Source: Alphaproteobacteria bacterium (GTDB lineage Bacteria; Pseudomonadota; Alphaproteobacteria; UBA6615). Taken from it: DNA of 64,000 nt. Numbering within the stretch: the stretch's first letter is position 1; each line of letters begins with the position of its first letter. Shown here piece by piece: positions 50,849 through 64,000 of this stretch. The notes under the pieces are model-generated. The model saw only the letters and a program-made list of their open reading frames with translations. It was not told the origin of the DNA and did no database searches. The position numbers and the translations under genes are program-made. The stretch covers positions 192,212-256,211 of the forward strand of contig JBFWVF010000005.1 in NCBI GenBank assembly GCA_050246875.1, given 5' to 3'.

Positions 50849-50938
50849 GGATGGGTGGCCGAGCGGTTTAAGGCACCGGTCTTGAAAACCGGCGGAGGTT
50901 CACGCCTCCCGTGGGTTCGAATCCCACCCCATCCGCCA
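50849..50938 (+). tRNA. tRNA-Ser (anticodon UGA)
   Basis: Acceptor stem GGATGGG/CCCATCC, D-arm GCCGAGCGGTTTAAGGC, anticodon loop CTTGAAA (UGA), long variable arm CGGAGGTTCACGCCTCCC, TΨC GGTTCGAATCC, discriminator G + CCA. Confidence 0.85.
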
Positions 50939-51035
50939 ATTGCATGTTCGGACGGATTTTGAGGCGTTCAGGCCCGTCCGCTGAATCGCAGGCGATCTGC
51001 GGCTCTCGCGAAGAACACTGTTCGCGCGCGTTCAA

Positions 51036-52379
51036 TTGCATCCAGCCAGATTAACCGATGGAACATGGGTCGAAGCATGGGCAGTCGACTTGGGCGGAAG
51101 GTTTTTCGTGGCCCGGACGAAGCACAGATTGCGGCCATTGCAGGTCAAGGCGCTGACCAAGCCCGGCCTCTACGCGGACGGCGGCGGGCTCTACCTCCGT
51201 GTTGCTCCGGGCGGCACGCGAGGTTGGATTTTCCGATGGGCGCGTGACGGCCGGACGCGCGATATGGGCCTTGGCTCGGTTGACGCGGTGTCGCTTGCAA
51301 AGGCCCGGGAGAAGGCGGACGCCTATCGAGCTCAGGCTGCCGACGGGATCGACCCGATCGAGGCGCGCAAGGGTGCACGCCTGGCGGCTGCCGTCGTCGC
51401 CGCGAGGACGAGCACGTTCGAGGAAGCTGCGCGATCCTGCGTGAAGGCACGTTCGGCGGGCTGGCGCGACCCGAAGCACGAGAAGCAGTGGGTCACCACG
51501 CTCGAGACATACGCCTTTCCGCACTTCGCATCGGTGCCGGTCGATCAGGTCGACGTCGCGATGGTGATGAAGGCGCTCGAGCCGATCTGGACGGAGAAGC
51601 CGGAGACGGCGAGCCGTGTCCGGGGTCGCATCGAGACGGTGCTCGACTGGGCGGCGGCGCGAGGCTACCGGAGCGGCGACAATCCGGCCCGGTGGCGCGG
51701 CCATCTGCAGAGCCTGTTGCCGCCGGCGAAAAAGGTGCGCCGAGTATAGCACCACGCCGCCCTGCCCTACGGTGAGGTTGGCAACTTCGTCGCCCAGGTC
51801 CGCAAGCAGGAAGGAGTGGCCGCGGCCGCGCTCGAATTCACCATCCTCACCGCCGCCCGTACCGGCGAGGTCATCGGCGCCCGCTGGCCGGAGATCGACC
51901 AGGCGAACAACGTCTGGACCATCCCGCCCGCGCGGACCAAGGCGGGCCGCGAGCATCGGATCCCGCTCTCCCGCCAAGCGCTCGCGGTACTGCACCGCAT
52001 GGCGCCGCTTCGACGTGACGATGGTTACGTCTTCCCTGGCCGCGACAAGGGCCGGCCACTCTCGAACATGGCGATGCTCGTGCTGCTCGAGCGCATGAAA
52101 CGGAACGATCTGACCGTGCATGGCTTCCGCTCGACGTTCCGGGACTGGACTGCCGAGCGCACGAACTTCCCGCAGCACGTCGCTGAGATGGCGCTGGGAC
52201 ACTCCATCCCCGATGCCGTTGAGGCTGCCTATCGCCGCGGCGAGCTGCTCCAGAAGCGACAGCAGCTTGCCCAGGGGTGGGGAGATTTCTGCGATCGCGC
52301 GCCGGCTGCCACCGTCGGCGACGTCGTGCCGATGAGCGAAGGCCAGCGACGGCGCCCAGAGGCGCAGGCGGCCGGCTAG
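51036..52379 (+). pseudogene. int: P4-type tyrosine integrase interrupted by an in-frame TAG (51747..51749)
   Basis: N-terminal Arm/DUF4102 (…LTKPGLYADGGGLYLRV…WIFRW…) and SAM-like domain; after the TAG the same frame continues HHAALPYGEVGNFVAQ… into the catalytic domain (R…HGFRSTFRDW…AYRRGE). The two ORF-track ORFs 51036..51749 and 51816..52379 are in the same frame. Confidence 0.8.
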
Positions 52380-52574: not shown

Positions 52575-53276
52575 CTAGTCATCCGGCACCAGCAAGCGGT
52601 AGCCAACCCCGGGCTCATTGCCGATGAACCGCGGGGCGGCGGGATCGTCGCCCAGCTTCTGCCTCAGGTGGCCGATGTAGACACGCAGGTAGTGGGTCTC
52701 TGTTTCGTGCGCCGGGCCCCATACCTCCCGCAACATGTGCCGATGGGTGACGATGCGGCCAGCATGCTGGGCGAGGAGGCGTAGCACGTCGAACTCCTTG
52801 CGCGACAGCTTCACGTCGTGGCCGGCAACAGTGACGCGGCGACGCGCCAGATCGATGCGCAGGTCGCCCGCATCTATTTGCGACGGCGGACTCGGAACGT
52901 CCGGGCGTCGCGTGCGCAGCGCCGCGCGAGCCCGTGCCAGCAGTTCGGCGATGCCGAACGGCTTTGTAATGTAGTCGTTGGCACCGCGGTCGAGCGCCGC
53001 CACCTTCTCGGCTTCACCCGCGCGTACGGACAGCACGACAATTGGCACATCCGACCATTCGCGGATTTGGGATATGACCTCCTGTCCGTCGATGTCCGGC
53101 AGGCCGAGGTCGAGGACGACAAGGTCCGGCCGCTCGGTCGCGCATTTCGCGATGGCATCCTGGCCGCGAACTGCTTCGACGATGTCGTAGCCGTGCGCGG
53201 CGAGACTGATGCGCAGAAACTTCCGGATCTGCGGTTCATCGTCCACGATCAGGATGCGCGATTTCCGTTCGCTCAC
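52575..53276 (-). CDS. kdpE: Response regulator KdpE (OmpR family)
   Basis: RILIVDDEPQIRKFL receiver + winged-helix (…YLRVYIGHLRQKLGDD…). Start uncertain (GTG 53276 or ATG 53306/53303); overlaps the kdpD 3' end. Confidence 0.85.
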   Translation of the reverse strand: MSERKSRILIVDDEPQIRKFLRISLAAHGYDIVEAVRGQDAIAKCATERPDLVVLDLGLPDIDGQEVISQIREWSDVPIVVLSVRAGEAEKVAALDRGANDYITKPFGIAELLARARAALRTRRPDVPSPPSQIDAGDLRIDLARRRVTVAGHDVKLSRKEFDVLRLLAQHAGRIVTHRHMLREVWGPAHETETHYLRVYIGHLRQKLGDDPAAPRFIGNEPGVGYRLLVPDD

Positions 53277-55995
53277 CGTCGACCCTCTCCACCGCCTGAG
53301 CATCATCCCGGATCGTCGGCAATGGCTCCAGCGGCAACGTGAATTCGATCGTCGTGCCCTGATCGCCCGGCCCGACTCCCGCGACGATGGTACCGCCGTG
53401 CGCCTCGATCAGGCCACGGCAGATCGACAGGCCGAGGCCGGTACCTGCGGCCTGCCTGTCGCCGGCATGGACCCGATAGAACACGTCAAACACGGCCTCC
53501 CGAGATTCCGGAGGGATACCGCGCCCCTCGTCGGATACCCGGGTGACGAGGCTATCGCCCACTCGACGGGACGCGACAACAATCCGGCTTCCAGGCGGCG
53601 AATACTTAGCCGCGTTGTCGAGCAGATTGACCAGCACCTGCTCGATTAGCACCGGATCCACTTTCACCACCGGCAGATCGAAGGGAATGTCGATGTCGAC
53701 CCGGTGTCGCCGCAACAGCTTCTCCAGCCGCCGGGCGGCCCGACCGGCGATTTCGCGCAGGTCGGCCCATTCCTTGTTGGGCTGGAGCGCGCCATACCCC
53801 AGCCGCGTCATGTCGAGGAGGTTCTGGACGAAGCGGTTGAGGCGTTCGCCCTCGCCAAGGATGGTCTGCAGGAGCTCGTCACGGTCGGCATCGGATAACT
53901 TGTCTGAGTGGCTAGCGAGGCTGGTCGCCGAGCCGATGATCGCGACCAGGGGCGTACGCAAGTCGTGCGAGACAGACGACAGCAGGGCCGAACGTAGCCG
54001 TTCGGTCTCGGTGAGGATGCGCGCCTCCTCGATGTCGGTGGCGAGACGCGTACGCTCGATCGCGACTGCGACCTGGTCGACGAGAGCGTCTATGAGGCGG
54101 CGTTGCTCGGGGTCCAGGCTGGCCTGCCGCGACCGGTCTGCGAACGAGATGGCGAGCAAGCCGACGGGCCCGCGCTGGGTCTTGAGCGGAAGGAACTGCC
54201 AGTCGGCCGTCGGCAGCGTGTCCGAGCCCCAGCCGGTGACGAGGCCGTGCTGCCACGCCCATTCGGCGGCGCCTCGATCCTTCGAGGACAACGTGTCTTC
54301 CGGAGGAAACCCGGCGGCGATGTCGAGACTTTCTCCATCCTTCTGCATCAGCACCAACGCGTGGCATTGCAGCGTCGAGGCGACGTGATGAACGGCCGCC
54401 CACAGTACGTCGTCGAGCGACGCGGCGGCGACGATGCGGCGACTGAAGTCGAACAGGTTCGAGGTGCGGCGGGCCGCCGTCCGCATGGCCTCGACCTGTG
54501 CCTTGAGGCGCGCGGCGAGATTGCCGACGAGCACTGCGACGATGAGGAAGAACAGGATCGTCGACAGCTCGCCTTCATGCAGGACGTTGAATGTGTAGTA
54601 AGGCTCTGTGAATAGGAAGTTGTAGGTAAGGAAGCTGATCAGGCTGGCGTAGAGGGATGGCCACAGGCCGAACCGGATGGCGACGACCAGCACCCCCACC
54701 ACGAAGACGAGCGAGACGTTGGGCAGCGGCAGGTACGACCAGACGCCGAAGGCGGCGACGGACGCGGCGGCGATGATCGCCGTCGCCAGCCCGTAGGCCT
54801 TGGCATCGAGGCGCAGCGAGGGCTTGCCTGGCTCGATCCACTGGCCCGGCCCGTCCTCGGCCGCCGGCGCGACGATAGTGACCTCGAAGGAATCCGCCTT
54901 GCGCAGCAAGCGTTCCGCCACGTTCTCGCGGAAGAAAGCCGCCAGCCGGCGCTTGCGTGGCCGGCCAATGACCAGCCGCGTCACGTTGCGCGCCCGGGCG
55001 AAGCGCAGCAGCTCGTCCGCCATATCGGACTCGGCGTGCAGCGTGGTCGTCTCGGCGCCGAGGCTTTCGGCGAACCGCAATGCCTCGGCGATGCGGTCCT
55101 TCGCGTCGTTGGGCAGGCTCTCGTGGCCAGGCGTCTGCACGTAGGTCACGATCCACGGGATGCGCGCGCGGTCGGCCATCCGCCGAGCCGCCCGCACCAG
55201 CTGCTTCGAGACAGGCGATTCGTTGATGCAGACGAGAAGGCGATCCTGTGTCGGCCATGGCCCGGCAATGGCATGGGCGCGCATGAAGTTGATCATCTGC
55301 GCGTCGACCCGCTCGGCGGCGACGCGCATCGCCAGCTCGCGAAAGGCGGTGAGGTTGCCCTTGGAGAAGAAGTGCCGGATCGCACGCCCGATCTGATGGG
55401 CGACATAGACTTTGCCTTCGCGGAGCCGCTGGATGAGGTCGTCCGGCGGCAGGTCGATCAGCTCGATCTCGTCGGCGAGCTCCAGCACCTTGTCGGGAAC
55501 AGTCTCGCGCACCCTGACGCGTGAAATGCGGGCCACCACGTCGTTCAGGCTGTCGAGATGCTGGATGTTGAGCGTGGTATAAACGTCAATGCCGGCGGCC
55601 AGCAGCTCCTCGACATCCTGCCAGCGCTTGGCGTGGCGGGTGCCGGGCACATTGCTGTGGGCGAACTCGTCGACGATGGCGAGCTTCGGCCGTCGCTGCA
55701 GAACGGCGTCGATATCCATCTCGCCGAATACCCGGCCACGATAGAGGTGGCGCTTGCGCGGCAGGATGTCGAGGCCGTGCAGCAGCCGCTCGGTCTCGAC
55801 GCGACCATGCGTTTCTACGACGGCGACGACGACATCGATGCCCTCGCGCCGACGCTCCTGCGCGGCCTCGAGCATGGAATACGTCTTGCCCACGCCCGGA
55901 TAGGCGCCGAGGAAGACCTTCAGGCGGCCGCGACCTTCCTTCTTCGCCTCTTCGAGAAGAACGTCGGGTGCCGGCCGCTCCTGGTCGTCAGACAT
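53236..55995 (-). CDS. kdpD: Sensor histidine kinase KdpD
   Basis: 919 aa. N-terminal KdpD domain with P-loop (GAYPGVGKTYSML), Usp domain, 4 TM, GAF, HisKA (SHDLRTPL), HATPase. Confidence 0.92.
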   Translation of the reverse strand: MSDDQERPAPDVLLEEAKKEGRGRLKVFLGAYPGVGKTYSMLEAAQERRREGIDVVVAVVETHGRVETERLLHGLDILPRKRHLYRGRVFGEMDIDAVLQRRPKLAIVDEFAHSNVPGTRHAKRWQDVEELLAAGIDVYTTLNIQHLDSLNDVVARISRVRVRETVPDKVLELADEIELIDLPPDDLIQRLREGKVYVAHQIGRAIRHFFSKGNLTAFRELAMRVAAERVDAQMINFMRAHAIAGPWPTQDRLLVCINESPVSKQLVRAARRMADRARIPWIVTYVQTPGHESLPNDAKDRIAEALRFAESLGAETTTLHAESDMADELLRFARARNVTRLVIGRPRKRRLAAFFRENVAERLLRKADSFEVTIVAPAAEDGPGQWIEPGKPSLRLDAKAYGLATAIIAAASVAAFGVWSYLPLPNVSLVFVVGVLVVAIRFGLWPSLYASLISFLTYNFLFTEPYYTFNVLHEGELSTILFFLIVAVLVGNLAARLKAQVEAMRTAARRTSNLFDFSRRIVAAASLDDVLWAAVHHVASTLQCHALVLMQKDGESLDIAAGFPPEDTLSSKDRGAAEWAWQHGLVTGWGSDTLPTADWQFLPLKTQRGPVGLLAISFADRSRQASLDPEQRRLIDALVDQVAVAIERTRLATDIEEARILTETERLRSALLSSVSHDLRTPLVAIIGSATSLASHSDKLSDADRDELLQTILGEGERLNRFVQNLLDMTRLGYGALQPNKEWADLREIAGRAARRLEKLLRRHRVDIDIPFDLPVVKVDPVLIEQVLVNLLDNAAKYSPPGSRIVVASRRVGDSLVTRVSDEGRGIPPESREAVFDVFYRVHAGDRQAAGTGLGLSICRGLIEAHGGTIVAGVGPGDQGTTIEFTLPLEPLPTIRDDAQAVERVDGERTEIAHPDRGR

Positions 55996-56088: not shown

Positions 56089-56652
56089 TCACCGGCCGCG
56101 CCTGTCGAGTGCAAGGTTGAGCTCCAGAACGCTGACGATCCGCTCCGGCGTCACGATGCCGCCGGGCGAGAAGGCGTGCTGGTCGACCAGCCGCTCGACC
56201 TCGCCGACGGGCAACCCGCGGGCGTCGGCGACGCGCCGGGCCTGGTACAACGCCGCAGGCGCGGTGATGTGAGGATCGAGCCCGCCGCCGGATGCCGCCG
56301 CCAGATCGGCAGGCAGCGGCCGTTCCGGCGTGGCTTCGTAGCGGGCAACAAGCTCGCGTCCGCGCGCTGTCAGGTCGGCGCTCGTCGGCGACTTGTTGCT
56401 GCCGGCCGCGGCGGTCGCATCGTAGCCGGTCTTGCCGGCCGCCGAGGGGCGCGGCCAGAAGTAGCGCGGCTCGGTGAAGTTCTGGCCGACCAGGCGGCTG
56501 CCGACAATCCGCCCGTCGGCAGTCCTGATTAGCGAGCCGGCCGCCGTATCGGGAAAGAGCTGGGCAATGCCCAGGATCACTGACGCGTAGCCGGCGACAC
56601 AGATCAGCATGGTCGCGACGACGAGCCGGGCGCTGGCAATGAACATCGACAT
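56089..56652 (-). CDS. kdpC: K+-transporting ATPase subunit C
   Basis: N-terminal TM, …SLIRTADGRIVGSRLVGQNFTEPRYFWPRPSAAG…, …GGLDPHITAPAALYQ…, ELNLALD C-terminus = KdpC. Confidence 0.9.
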   Translation of the reverse strand: MSMFIASARLVVATMLICVAGYASVILGIAQLFPDTAAGSLIRTADGRIVGSRLVGQNFTEPRYFWPRPSAAGKTGYDATAAAGSNKSPTSADLTARGRELVARYEATPERPLPADLAAASGGGLDPHITAPAALYQARRVADARGLPVGEVERLVDQHAFSPGGIVTPERIVSVLELNLALDRRGR

Positions 56653-56671
56653 GGTTACACTCCTGCCTGCG

Positions 56672-58348
56672 CTAGTTCATGAAGGTGAAGTGCTCGGCGA
56701 GCGGTCCCAGTGCCGCCGCCGGAAAGAACGTCAGCGCACCGAACACGAGGATGGTGGCGATCAGCATGAGGGCGAATGTCGCGTCCTCGACGCCGAGCGT
56801 ACCGGCCGTCGTCGCCGCCCGCCGCTTTGTACCGAGCGAGCCCGCGATGGCCAGCGGCAGGATGATCGGAATGAAGCGCGCCAGCAGCATGACGATGCCG
56901 GTTGCCACGTTCCACGGCACCGTGTTGTCGCCCAGCCCTTCGAAGCCGGACCCGTTGTTGGCGCTGGCGGAGCTGAATTCGTAGAGCATCTCGCTGAAGC
57001 CGTGCGCGCCGACATTGTTGAGCGTTCCGGTGCCCCACGATGTCGCAGCGAAGAGTGCCGTGCCGCCGAGGATGAAGGCGGCATGGGCAACCAGCGCGAG
57101 AACGGCGAGCTTCACCTCGCCGGCCTCGACGCGCCGCCCCAGATACTCCGGGGTGCGGCCTACCATCATGCCGGCGAGGAACACGGCGACGATGATGTAC
57201 AGGAACATGTTGATCATGCCGACACCGACACCGCCGAACGTGGCGTTGAGCCACATGCCTATCATCGGCATCAATCCGGTCATCGGATTCAGGCTATCAT
57301 GCATGGCGCCGACCGAGCCGTTGCTGGTAGACGTCGTCAGCACGGCCCACAGCGGACCTGAGGCCGAGCCAAAGCGCAGCTCCTTGCCTTCGAGGTTGCC
57401 AACGCCCTGCTCGATGGGAAGCGCGGCAAAGGCCTCTGTCGGCGCAGATTCGAAATACACCGCGCCGCCGATCTTGGCGAGCAGCAGCACCAGCATGACG
57501 CCGAAGACCACGGCAGCATGGCGCGGGCGCCCGACGATCCGGCCGAACAGCCATACCGACGCCATCGGGATGAGGATGATCGCCACCATCGACAGCCCGT
57601 TGGTCCAGAAGGTCGGGTTCTCGAGCGGGTGCGTGCTGTTGGGACCGAAGAAGCCGCCGCCGTTGGTGCCGAGCTGCTTGATCGTCAAGAAGGCCGCCAC
57701 CGGACCGCGGGCGATGGTCTGCATCGCACCTTCCAGCGTCGTCACCACTGCCGCGCCGTCGAAGGTCATCGGCATGCCGCCGGCGACCATCAGCGTGGCG
57801 ACGACGAGGGCCAGCGGCAGCAGCACCAGGAAAGAGGCCCGCTGCAGGTCGACGAAGAAATTGCCGAGCGGTCGCCCGGCAAGGCCGCGGGCGAGTGCCG
57901 TCAACGCCGCGATGCCGGTCGCCGCCGAGACGAACTGCAGCCACATCAGGCCGCCGAGCTGCGAGAAATAGCTGAGCGTGCTTTCGCCCGAATAGTGCTG
58001 CAGGTTGGTGTTGGACGTGAAGGACGCCGCAGTGTTGAACGCGAGGCTGCCTTCGATCGGGCCCATGCCATCCGGATTGAGCGGCAGGTACTGCTGCAGG
58101 GCAAGGATGGCGTAGGTCACCGTGAACATCACGGCGTTGAATGCCAGCATCGCGAACACGTATGGCTTCCAGCCTTGCGACGCGCGGGTCAGCGGGCCGC
58201 CGACGGCCTGAAAGACGCGGGTCCAGCCGTCGGGCCCGGTCGCCGGCTGGTCGGGGTCCATGGCCCGCTTCATGTAACGGCCAAGCGGCCACGAAAGCAG
58301 CGCGGTGCCGCCTACAATAACGGCGACGAGAAGTACGGCGTTCAGCAT
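56672..58348 (-). CDS. kdpA: K+-transporting ATPase subunit A (channel-like subunit)
   Basis: KdpA hallmarks NTNLQHYSGESTLSYFSQ, GTNGGGFF, GNLEGKE, GRTPEYLG; 558 aa from MLNAVLLVAV. Confidence 0.92.
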   Translation of the reverse strand: MLNAVLLVAVIVGGTALLSWPLGRYMKRAMDPDQPATGPDGWTRVFQAVGGPLTRASQGWKPYVFAMLAFNAVMFTVTYAILALQQYLPLNPDGMGPIEGSLAFNTAASFTSNTNLQHYSGESTLSYFSQLGGLMWLQFVSAATGIAALTALARGLAGRPLGNFFVDLQRASFLVLLPLALVVATLMVAGGMPMTFDGAAVVTTLEGAMQTIARGPVAAFLTIKQLGTNGGGFFGPNSTHPLENPTFWTNGLSMVAIILIPMASVWLFGRIVGRPRHAAVVFGVMLVLLLAKIGGAVYFESAPTEAFAALPIEQGVGNLEGKELRFGSASGPLWAVLTTSTSNGSVGAMHDSLNPMTGLMPMIGMWLNATFGGVGVGMINMFLYIIVAVFLAGMMVGRTPEYLGRRVEAGEVKLAVLALVAHAAFILGGTALFAATSWGTGTLNNVGAHGFSEMLYEFSSASANNGSGFEGLGDNTVPWNVATGIVMLLARFIPIILPLAIAGSLGTKRRAATTAGTLGVEDATFALMLIATILVFGALTFFPAAALGPLAEHFTFMN

Positions 58349-58374
58349 AGGACGATCTCCAGCACGGCCGGCGT

Positions 58375-58455
58375 TCAGGTCCGGTCGACCGTCTCGGCAA
58401 GCACGAACAGCGCGCCGAAGACGGCGAGTCCGAGGAGCAGGTAGAGCCACAGCAT
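58375..58455 (-). CDS. Small hydrophobic peptide (26 aa) between kdpB and kdpA, possible second KdpF-like subunit
   Basis: ATG with RBS AAGGA 9 nt upstream. MLWLYLLLGLAVFGALFVLAETVDRT*. Single TM. Stop 24 nt before the kdpA ATG. Not in the ORF track (too short); read directly. Confidence 0.35.
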   Translation of the reverse strand: MLWLYLLLGLAVFGALFVLAETVDRT

Positions 58456-58473
58456 GGCGAGGATCCTTCTGGT

Positions 58474-60501
58474 CTAGACGAGTCCCAGCGACGCGATGAG
58501 CATGTCGATGAGCTTGATGCCGGCGAATGGCACGACGAGGCCGCCGACACCGTAGACCAGCAGGTTGCGCTGCAGCAGGGCGGCGGCACTCGATGGCGTG
58601 AAGCGGACGCCGCGCAGCGCCAGCGGGATGAGGGCGACGATGATCAGCGCGTTGAAGATGACCGCCGACAGGATCGCGCTCTCCGGGCTGGCGAGGTGCA
58701 TGATGTCGAGGGCGTCGAGCGATGGATAGGCGGCGACGAACATCGCCGGCAGGATGGCGAAGTACTTGGCCACGTCGTTTGCGATGGAGAACGTCGTCAG
58801 CGCGCCGCGGCTGATGAGCAGTTGCTTGCCGATCTGCACCACCTCCATCAGCTTGGTCGGGTCGCTGTCGAGGTCGACGATATTGGCGGCCTCCCGCGCA
58901 GCCTGGGTGCCGTCGTTCATGGCGACGCCGATGTCAGCCTGGGCCAGCGCAGGGGCGTCGTTGGTGCCGTCGCCGCACATCGCCACCATGCGTCCCTCCG
59001 CCTGCTCGCGGCGGATCCACTCGAGCTTCTTCTCCGGAGTGGCTTCGGCAAGGAAGTCGTCGACACCGGCCTCGGCCGCGATGGCGGCAGCGGTCAGCGC
59101 ATTGTCGCCCGTGATCATCACCGTGCGGATACCCATGCGGCGAAGCTGGGCGAAACGGTCGGCGATGCCGGGCTTGACGATGTCCTTGAGATGGACGACG
59201 CCGAGCACCCGGCGATCTCGGGCGACGAGGATCGGCGTGCCGCCGGAGCGTGCGATGTCCTCGACCGTGCGCTTGAGACCCATCGTCTCGGCCAGGTCGG
59301 CGTAGGTCAGTATGGCGTCCTCGGCACCCTTGCGGACCTCGCCATCGGCCAGGTCGGCGCCGCTCATGCGGATCTCGGCGCTGAAGGGGATGAATTTTCG
59401 TACCTGCGAGGCGTCGGGCGTCACGCCGTACTTGCGCTTCGCCAGCTCGACGATGGAGCGCCCTTCCGGCGTCTCGTCGCTGAGCGAGGCCAGCGCCGCA
59501 GCCTCGGCCAGTTCCTGCATGCCGACGCCACGCGACGGAATGAACTCGTCGGCCATGCGGTTGCCGAAGGTGATGGTGCCGGTCTTGTCGATGAGCAGCG
59601 TGTCGACGTTGCCGGCGGCCTCCACCGCGCGCCCCGACTTGGCGATGACGTTGGCCTGGACCAGTCGGTCCATGCCGGCGATGCCGATGGCCGACAACAG
59701 GCCGCCGATGGTCGTCGGGATCAGGGTGACGAGGAGTGCGATGAGGAAGACAACCGGAATTGCCGCGCCGGAATAGATGGCAAAAGGCTCCAGCGTGACC
59801 ACGACGATGAGGAAGATCAGGGTCATGCCGACCAGCAGGATGCTTAGCGCGACCTCGTTCGGCGTCTTCTGCCGTTGCGCGCCCTCCACCATGGCGATCA
59901 TGCGGTCGAGGAAGCTCTCCCCCGGCTTTGCCGTGACGCGCACCTTGAGCCAGTCCGATACCACCCGCGTCCCGCCGGTGACGGCCGAGCGGTCGCCCCC
60001 GCTCTCGCGGATGACCGGCGCCGACTCACCAGTGATCGCCGCCTCGTCAACCGAGGCAATACCCTCGATGACCTCGCCGTCGGCCGGGATCAACTCGCCG
60101 GCTTCGACCAGCACGACATCGCCGCTGCGCAGCTCGCTGCTGCGCACCGTTTCGTGACCGTCGCCGGCGGGCGCGCCGAGGCGCCTGGCCATCGTCTCCC
60201 GGTGCGTCTCGCGCAGACTGTCGGCGCGCGCCTTGCCTCGGCCTTCGGCGACAGCCTCGGCGAAGTTGGCGAACAGCACCGTGAACCACAGCCAGGCGGC
60301 GATCTGGCCGATGATGCCGGCATCGGCAGCGCCGAACAGATCGCGCAGGAATGCCAGCGTCGCCAGCACTGCGACGACCTCGACGACGAACATCACCGGA
60401 TTGCGGACTAGCGTGCGCGGATCAAGCTTGCGCACGGAAACCGATAGCGCCTGCAGCACCAGTGCACGGTCGAGCAGGACTATGCTTCGGGACTTGAGCA
60501 T
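58474..60501 (-). CDS. kdpB: K+-transporting P-type ATPase subunit B
   Basis: [11 protein letters not shown] phosphorylation motif, [15 protein letters not shown]; 675 aa from [11 protein letters not shown]. Confidence 0.92.
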
Positions 60502-60591
60502 TGTTCGATCTCCACGCGGAACAGGTGGCGGCGATTGCGGCGCTGCACCCGGCGGGTCTGGTATTGCGCGCCGGCGGTCGCGCACGGGTCG

Positions 60592-60681
60592 CTAGAACTG
60601 CTCCGGCCGGAGCAGCGCATAAAGCAGGTAGCCAAGCAGCAGCAGCGCAACTCCGCCGCCGATCAGGAATTCGAGTGTCAT
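60592..60681 (-). CDS. kdpF: K+-transporting ATPase subunit F
   Basis: 29-aa MTLEFLIGGGVALLLLGYLLYALLRPEQF* matches the KdpF consensus (…LLGYLxYALxxPExF). Not in the ORF track; read directly. Confidence 0.7.
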   Translation of the reverse strand: MTLEFLIGGGVALLLLGYLLYALLRPEQF

Positions 60682-63690: not shown

Positions 63691-64000
63691 CACTCGGCCG
63701 CCTCCGCCTTGCGCAGCGAGGTCGGCGCCGCGCCATAGAGACGCGCCGACTCCTCCTGGCTCACCAGCCGCCCGTCGGGCGCGAACATCGGGTAGAACTT
63801 GAGCGACCCGAAGAAGGTATGGAAGCCGAGGTTGTAGAACATGAACACGCCGAGCTCGGTGATCTCGTCCTCGCTCAGCACCGCGCGCATCTCGTCGTAG
63901 AACGCCGCGTCGACCGAGTGCGGGTCGGAACCCATCGCCTCGGAGTAGCGCAGCATCATCTTTTCCTTGGCCGAGAAGTTGGGGCTGTCGGCCCAGTTCT
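63690..64000 (-). CDS. Carboxymuconolactone decarboxylase (AhpD-like) family protein, 5' end beyond window
   Basis: …NFSAKEKMMLRYSEAMGSDPHSVDAAFYDEMRAVLSEDEITELGVFMFYNLG… CMD family motif. The reading frame stays open to the window edge, so the gene is partial. Confidence 0.65.
   Translation of the reverse strand, partial: NWADSPNFSAKEKMMLRYSEAMGSDPHSVDAAFYDEMRAVLSEDEITELGVFMFYNLGFHTFFGSLKFYPMFAPDGRLVSQEESARLYGAAPTSLRKAEAAE

Follow-up and report, generated by a model that had tools for sequence, protein, structure and literature searches.

A kdp operon in a stretch of alphaproteobacterial DNA 64,000 nucleotides long (contig JBFWVF010000005.1 of assembly GCA_050246875.1; hereafter the window) has the gene of its P-type ATPase subunit, kdpB, ahead of kdpA, the gene of its channel-like subunit, and a small open reading frame (ORF) of 26 codons, which we call x, between the two. 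The explanation that we prefer, and to which as a whole we give a probability of about 0.6, is that the locus encodes a working Kdp pump under KdpDE control and represents a conserved variant of the operon, kdpF-kdpB-x-kdpA'-kdpC'-kdpD-kdpE, in which the primes denote a separate lineage of KdpA and KdpC. The gene order is conserved and already stands in public annotations, and taken alone it is not new and is of minor interest. A new part of the finding is the micro-ORF, a real gene and one of a broad family that the literature searched does not describe: judged by profile and alignment, x is a relocated member of a widespread group of kdp-linked micro-peptides for which Pfam, NCBIfam and PDB hold no entry.

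Layout of the operon

The operon, the sole kdp operon of the window, is read on the minus strand from 60681 to 52575 and consists of the following elements, in the order of transcription (aa, amino acids; RBS, ribosome-binding site).

60681..60592, minus strand: kdpF, the first gene of the operon, 29 aa, MTLEFLIGGGVALLLLGYLLYALLRPEQF; PF09604 at E = 1.3e-8, TIGR02115 at 35 bits
60502..60591, minus strand: kdpF-kdpB spacer of 90 bp, which holds the kdpB RBS, GGAG
60501..58474, minus strand: kdpB, P-type ATPase subunit, 675 aa; TIGR01497 at 1025 bits (cut-off 528)
58455..58375, minus strand: micro-ORF x, 26 aa, MLWLYLLLGLAVFGALFVLAETVDRT; a predicted single-pass membrane peptide
58349..58374, minus strand: x-kdpA spacer of 26 nt, which carries kdpA's own RBS, GGAG
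58348..56672, minus strand: kdpA, channel-like subunit, 558 aa; PF03814 at 689 bits, TIGR00680 at 564 bits
56652..56089, minus strand: kdpC, 187 aa; PF02669 at E = 1.6e-53
55995..53236, minus strand: kdpD, sensor kinase, 919 aa; Pfam domains KdpD, Usp, DUF4118, GAF, HisKA and HATPase_c
53276..52575, minus strand: kdpE, response regulator; Response_reg and Trans_reg_C, with its start as in the NCBI call

Full-length family matches account for all four pump subunits and for both regulators. The KdpB translation shows intact DKTGTIT, ITGESAP (TGES) and ANDVAKYF (NDVAKY) motifs, its start being identical in the NCBI annotation, and all four filter motifs of KdpA (NTN, TNGGG, SNGS and NNGS) are readable in translation. 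The order kdpF-kdpA-kdpB-kdpC, which is typical of the family without being functionally defining, is not the order of this operon. The start codon of x, an ATG, lies 8 nt from an AAGGA RBS (58468..58464), the gap between kdpB and x is 18 nt, and the whole kdpB-kdpA (B-A) spacer measures 125 bp. An earlier, sequence-only reading of this DNA had placed the genes, a B-A spacer of about 125 bp and the AAGGA RBS of the 26-aa ORF where we also find them. The Rfam scan of the operon spacers was empty and the promoter and terminator scans gave no terminator-like site above chance in them; the kdpB-x interval in particular contains no terminator and no Rfam element.

The micro-gene x

Loci in which kdpB directly precedes kdpA (B-A loci) form two groups by spacer length, one with spacers of 94-133 bp and the other with spacers of 16-32 bp. 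In all 36 loci with a long spacer, representing 33 distinct DNA sequences, the spacer contains an intact ORF that starts with ATG and is 24-37 codons long, with AGGA or GGAG 6-10 nt upstream and with the consensus MxxLYLLLGLAVFGLLxxxTxAVDRA; two of the 36 extend into the kdpA start, and the x-kdpA spacers of these relatives, 1-31 nt in length, likewise contain GGAG. The short spacers hold no x ORF. Across the long-spacer loci the entropies of the three codon positions are 0.99, 0.65 and 1.35, the third being the most variable, the pooled ratio of non-synonymous to synonymous polymorphism (pN/pS) is 0.55, and over the same pairs of loci x and KdpF are equally conserved (54% and 53% identity, respectively). 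Comparisons of this kind show x to be, in all likelihood, a real protein-coding micro-gene for a single-helix peptide, preceded by an RBS and as conserved as KdpF. The sequence-only reading had allowed that the ORF might be a chance one if relatives did not conserve it, and they have kept it; the 36 intact ORFs and the codon-position variation exclude the chance reading. Gene calling has largely passed x by: an exact look-up of ten variants found four in JGI gene calls, at most as a "hypothetical protein", and the NCBI records for the window, for Hoeflea and for Stappia contain none.

A family of kdp-linked micro-peptides

A hidden Markov model (HMM) of x was searched, in three iterations, against 50,448 ORFs of 18-70 codons taken from both strands of all loci collected. 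Besides ORFs adjacent to kdpA, the first HMM matched micro-ORFs directly 5' of kdpF in the nearest relatives of canonical order (for example MILYLILGLIIFAALAAITAACDKI), with E-values down to 3e-9, and gave weak matches in ordinary alphaproteobacterial kdp operons. After three iterations there were 107 matches among the 50,448 ORFs, each of which either immediately precedes kdpA' or heads the operon beside kdpF, five being scored as "other" merely through an overlapping or offset kdpF call. The family so defined comprises peptides of 24-31 aa with one hydrophobic helix, a near-invariant Phe at position 13-14 and a C-terminal acidic-basic pair. Its alignment is gapless, F13 is nearly invariant in it, the C-terminus reads [C/V][D/E][R/K][L/I/A], and the residues conserved across phyla are F13, Y/F6, G10 and the C-terminal D/E-R/K. 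The window x has all the marks of the family, namely the HMM match (first HMM, 49.0 bits and E = 1.1e-12; iterated HMM, 39.5 bits and E = 9.6e-10), the gapless alignment and a position on the coding strand of a kdp operon, directly 5' of kdpA.

Members occur in 52 of the 80 genome loci (Alphaproteobacteria, Acidobacteriota, Chloroflexota, Gemmatimonadota and other groups) and in 13 of the 14 loci that are sister to the window's KdpA lineage. Where a canonical operon has a member, the ORF lies immediately 5' of kdpF. The family HMM found none in the short-gap B-A subclade or in the Pseudomonas and Bacteroidota loci, and profile searches with the family returned no match in Pfam or NCBIfam and nothing significant in PDB. 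In RefSeq the Azospirillum ramasamyi member has been called as a 41-aa hypothetical protein (WP_281280356.1), and that on a Rhizobium indigoferae plasmid is present and uncalled in the gene table examined. One canonical-type micro-peptide has a sub-threshold match (E = 0.05) to NCBIfam NF040912, the SGM_5486 family transporter-associated protein of 37 aa, perhaps an actinobacterial counterpart or perhaps a chance hit.

The micro-ORF at the head of canonical operons and the window x belong to one family by HMM and gapless alignment, and sister-clade forms such as that cited above bridge the two subtypes. They differ in position, operon head as against the interval between kdpB and kdpA, and in the C-terminal motif, usually C-D/E-R/K-L in the canonical forms and V/I-D-R-A in x. 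What the sequence-only reading offered as a possible novel accessory peptide, inserted into the operon, is instead a relocated member of the family that heads most canonical kdp operons, 5' of kdpF.

Comparison of x with KdpF

The same reading had called the peptide KdpF-like, and on that view x might be a diverged kdpF duplicate, each large subunit having its own KdpF-type helix. The two peptides are alike in size, in having a single helix with a predicted N-out/C-in topology, in being encoded in kdp operons and in their degree of conservation, and a profile-profile comparison (hhalign) of a narrow x profile with KdpF gave an end-to-end alignment at 40% probability. With the family-wide profile of 45 sequences, however, the probability fell to 1.1%, and the 40% was an effect of the hydrophobic helix. 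The window peptide has no match to PF09604 or TIGR02115 at E <= 1, and none of the 31 relatives matches PF09604 at E <= 10. The residues that are invariant in the KdpF alignment (Y18, L19, P26 and F29, as Y-L...P-E-x-F) are absent from x, which carries F13, Y5, G9 and the C-terminal D-R in their place. In addition, at least 59 canonical operons, as well as the A'-lineage locus L100, have a gene of the x family beside a bona fide kdpF, which argues for a separate family and not a local duplicate; x coexists with KdpF and does not replace it. These comparisons show that x is most probably not a KdpF homologue, and we reject the duplicate, chiefly on the 1.1% family-wide figure, as very improbable. 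The idea of one small partner for each large subunit is contradicted by L100 and its fellow L099 (described below), by sister loci of order x-F-A-B-C and by a subclade of order F-B-A-C that has no x.

Conservation of the gene order

The window comes from a metagenome-assembled genome, and its unusual order might on that account be suspected of being a mis-assembly, as the sequence-only reading had itself suggested. However, the same genes in the same order are found in NCBI record JBFXDC010000007.1 (GCA_050181545.1), which matches the window contig and in which the 26-aa ORF was left uncalled, and an identical KdpA is present on two contigs. Beyond these, relatives of the window KdpA at 78-87% identity number more than 100, and the order F-B-(x)-A-C-D occurs in about 64 independent loci or contigs. 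Mapping by tblastn put kdpB directly before kdpA in about 60 of 80 metagenome loci retrieved with KdpA. The arrangement kdpF-kdpB-gap-kdpA-kdpC-kdpD-kdpE is present in Hoeflea sp. BAL378, Stappia sp. TSB10GB4 and one Burkholderiales metagenome-assembled genome, and the closed RefSeq plasmid pBSY17_1 of Sphingobium sp. RAC03 is annotated kdpF-kdpB-kdpA-kdpC-kdpD-response regulator. An order that is met in about 64 independent loci can be put down neither to chance nor to mis-assembly; the isolate genomes, the closed plasmid and the dozens of independent metagenome contigs rule out an assembly artefact, and, with x conserved in 33 distinct sequences, the probability that the order is misassembled or x a chance ORF is negligible. 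The evolutionary rearrangement that the sequence-only reading had offered as the other possibility is real, and its proposed comparison with related loci turns up the same synteny in the Hoeflea, Stappia, Burkholderiales and Sphingobium operons. Taken together, the loci show a KdpA lineage, A', with an inherited order, in Alphaproteobacteria and some Betaproteobacteria.

A scan of genome contigs with KdpB returned only canonical A-B-C or C-A-B loci, at identities of 72% or less, and so missed the B-first clade, which was reached through the KdpA search only. In the 80 genome loci retrieved with KdpB, kdpA is always directly before kdpB where both are present; most of these loci are A-B-C, three are C-A-B and one, on a truncated contig, is C-B. 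A non-canonical order of another kind among the loci retrieved with KdpB, kdpC-kdpA-kdpB, is that of the Bacteroidota/Ignavibacteria loci L043, L067 and L072.

The claim that all known kdp operons are ordered F-A-B-C was mistaken, as the Sphingobium annotation and the published B-first operon kdpBAC of Deinococcus radiodurans (PMC5716572) make plain. Nor is the order novel: by the earlier reading's own rule, close relatives already annotated in this way make it rearranged and not new. Beyond D. radiodurans kdpBAC, the literature searched mentioned neither the micro-ORF nor any F-B-A-C order in proteobacteria. The D. radiodurans operon, kdpBAC(D-N) on megaplasmid MP1 (PMC5716572), has kdpB before kdpA and kdpC as in the window, and in our reading of the locus consists of kdpB, an insert of 600 bp and then kdpF-kdpA-kdpC, with kdpF directly 5' of kdpA. 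It differs from the window in having no kdpF before kdpB, no match to the x family and a KdpA outside the A' clade, a comparison which shows its B-first order to be an independent rearrangement. Its kdpB-kdpA insert contains an antisense, membrane-like ORF of 133 aa followed by kdpF.

Several smaller variations accompany B-first operons. The F-B spacer ranges from -38 to 263 bp among relatives, and in the Hoeflea/Stappia subgroup, where it is 200-260 bp long, it holds another conserved small ORF, which includes, e.g., the stretch RASDIILGMTLAMLVIVLVVWLLAQLF, with a basic N-terminus and one hydrophobic helix; this ORF, seen in L082 (3553-3802), L086, L091, L096, L098, L102, L104, L107 and L134, has no match to KdpA and is absent from the window. 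Three B-first operons have 470-930 bp between kdpB and kdpA (L131, 1562-2034; L156, 2573-3501; L167, 18923-19530). In the Burkholderiales genome (L083-L085, 8291-9231) two extra genes, for a 43-aa ORF and a PF09694 (Gcw_chp) protein, lie between kdpC and kdpD.

Two histories within one operon

All 68 tips of B-A loci group together as a single clade, A', in the neighbour-joining KdpA tree, and the sister of this clade is a set of 14 loci ordered x-F-A-B-C. KdpA of the A' lineage is 41-49% identical to canonical alphaproteobacterial KdpA, and KdpC co-varies with it (59-73% identity within the clade, 36-52% to canonical KdpC). The KdpBs of the B-A operons, in their own tree, scatter among canonical KdpBs, and some pairs of a B-A and a canonical operon have KdpBs that are 80-87% identical and yet KdpAs at about 45%; in canonical pairs with KdpB at 85-90%, KdpA is at about 82%. 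The contrast is well seen between Hoeflea (B-A) and Bosea (canonical), which share 85-86% identity in KdpB, 68-69% in KdpD and 76% in KdpE as against 44-46% in KdpA and 41-44% in KdpC.

The window follows the same pattern. Its KdpA is 78% identical to that of Hoeflea, x 60%, KdpC 59-61%, KdpB 66-68% and KdpD 49%; its KdpB is closest to canonical Rhizobiales KdpB (72% identity); its KdpD tracks the host lineage, being 61% identical to that of the canonical Fulvimarina operon versus the 49% to the Hoeflea B-A operon; and its KdpF is of the 29-aa type of the alphaproteobacterial host, not of the 26-aa sister type. These identities show one history for x, KdpA' and KdpC' and another for KdpF, KdpB, KdpD and KdpE, which resemble the canonical operons of host relatives.

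Loci with x lie on both sides of the deepest split in the KdpA clade, and x is therefore likely to be ancestral in the clade and is, by this reasoning, presumably lost in the Sphingomonad-like short-gap subclade and in L094, L105 and L113. A third order within the A' lineage, kdpF-x-kdpA'-kdpC'-kdpB with the two micro-genes adjacent, occurs in L099 (1-3592) and L100 (3300-5476). Across the arrangements x is never more than one gene 5' of kdpA' while kdpB moves: it is directly 5' in F-B-x-A-C and F-x-A-C-B and one gene further up in x-F-A-B-C.

Such a distribution suggests that a contiguous x-kdpA'-kdpC' module may recombine into host operons. The module would have been joined to a host-type kdpF and kdpB and to kdpDE through recombination between kdp operons, with the conserved kdpB and kdpD serving as homology arms for the exchange, and such joining would leave kdpB before kdpA with x in between. 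Either x-A'-C' would move into host operons or the flanking genes would become converted to the resident type, through gene conversion of kdpB and kdpD by resident copies. Recombination of this kind fits the third arrangement in L099 and L100, the nearness of x to kdpA' while kdpB moves, and the retention in L097 (1135-1218) and L083-L085 (3586-3681) of a second, canonical, host-type copy of x 5' of kdpF beside the A'-type copy 5' of kdpA'.

The function of x

The x peptide consists of a short N-terminus, a single hydrophobic helix and a C-terminus that is acidic-basic. Under the positive-inside rule, its charges predict an outside N-terminus and an inside C-terminus, and the same topology is predicted for KdpF. 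The co-inheritance of x with kdpA' and kdpC', and its adjacency to them, make the channel half of the pump its likely partner. At slightly under even odds, we would see in x a small, dispensable subunit for assembly or stabilisation: an inner-membrane peptide made from its own RBS, with its N-terminus out and basic C-terminus in, which would associate with the KdpA/KdpC channel half and aid its assembly or stability, much as KdpF does.

An alternative is that x is no pump subunit but a regulatory micro-protein whose target is the sensor kinase KdpD, comparable to MgrB with PhoQ. Mycobacterial KdpF reportedly acts on the KdpD sensor kinase, and x is always in an operon linked to kdpDE. Small membrane peptides often modulate sensor kinases, a general point that one paper (PMC3618439) also makes, with KdpF described there as a supposed stabiliser of the KdpABC pump. 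However, x is co-inherited with kdpA' and kdpC', whereas kdpD is host-like, and x stays beside kdpA' when other genes move, all of which makes a modulator of KdpD unlikely.

It might also be that the translation of x alone matters: as a leader or coupling ORF it would govern how kdpA is translated or how stable the transcript is, and the peptide made would have no function. The x stop codon is 1-31 nt from the kdpA start, and the canonical family member, being the ORF just 5' of kdpF, opens the coding region, as a leader peptide would. Against this stand the residues conserved across phyla, at a level equal to that of KdpF, the persistence of the peptide sequence after its move from the operon head to an internal site, the possession by kdpA of its own GGAG RBS and the lack of any attenuator or terminator structure or Rfam element in the scans described above; in the window x is internal, after kdpB, and not at the head of the operon. 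A leader or coupling ORF is accordingly quite unlikely, and an assembly or stabilising subunit of the pump is the role that we prefer for x.

A bolder proposal, doubtful as a whole and offered tentatively, is that the x family is an unrecognised fifth component of the Kdp pump in most non-enteric operons, and that the x-KdpA-KdpC of the A' lineage is a laterally moving "channel module" on resident KdpB and KdpDE. The absence of the family from E. coli would explain why no solved KdpFABC structure shows x, and the plugging of a channel module into a resident ATPase and its regulators would account for the B-first order.

A number of observations weigh against the explanation that we prefer. The pN/pS of x is only moderate, at 0.55 with synonymous sites near saturation. 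The trees were built by neighbour joining from tblastn-derived sequences and carry no bootstrap values, and in that of KdpB the internal branches are very short. No operon with two kdpA genes, the expected intermediate, was found among the loci examined, the kdpF-kdpB spacers contained no kdpA remnants of the sort that a deleted native copy might leave, and sliding-window identity in KdpB and KdpD revealed no clear recombination breakpoints. The absence of x from the Sphingomonad-like subclade (gap of 16-32 bp), L094, L105, L113, Pseudomonas and Bacteroidota marks it as dispensable, as does the E. coli kdp operon, which is not known to have x. Finally, the partner of x is proposed solely from gene neighbourhood and co-inheritance.

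Known systems and wider meaning

The window operon shares with the E. coli-type KdpFABC/KdpDE system the same pump subunits and regulators, with intact catalytic motifs in KdpB and intact filter motifs in KdpA, and differs from it in the order F-B-x-A-C versus F-A-B-C, in the extra micro-gene and in the separate KdpA/KdpC lineage. Small partners of P-type ATPases are familiar: sarcolipin and phospholamban with SERCA, FXYD proteins with the Na,K-ATPase, and MgtS and MgtR with MgtA. The concept, a single-pass micro-protein with a P-type pump, is the same in x, which is not known to be related to any of these in sequence, the profile search of PDB having given nothing significant, and whose putative partner would be the KdpA channel subunit and not the ATPase.

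To our knowledge, and in the papers retrieved, mechanistic and structural work on KdpFABC uses the four-subunit complex of E. coli. If most soil and aquatic bacteria encode an extra, conserved membrane micro-protein in the operon, the composition, assembly or regulation of their pumps may differ from that model, and the family, having no Pfam or NCBIfam model, is a gene that annotation pipelines mostly leave uncalled. The A' lineage amounts to a natural experiment, in which the micro-gene stays with kdpA and kdpC while kdpB, kdpD and kdpE appear to be exchanged, and this retention is what points to the partner of x. It also suggests a chimeric pump whose channel half and ATPase half would be recombinable in nature. 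The finding will gain weight if x turns out to belong physically to the Kdp pump outside the enterics; its second added value lies in the evidence that x, KdpA and KdpC form a module, joined here to KdpB and KdpDE of host type.

Genomic context

Two features on the plus strand abut the 3' end of the operon, next to kdpE, and together extend over 50849..52379.

50849-50938, plus strand: tRNA-Ser (tga), found by ARAGORN
51036-51749 and 51816-52379, plus strand: split P4-type integrase, with Arm-DNA-bind_3 and Phage_int_M in the first part and Phage_integrase in the second

At about position 51000 the GC content falls from 0.71-0.76 to 0.63-0.69, a drop of about 5-8 points. No second attachment-site copy, sought as a repeat of the tRNA 3' end, occurs within the window at up to three mismatches; the far border of the putative island may lie beyond position 64000. 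The tRNA gene, the adjacent integrase and the compositional shift are the three marks of a tRNA island, and on their strength the whole kdp operon probably lies at the edge of a tRNA-Ser genomic island.

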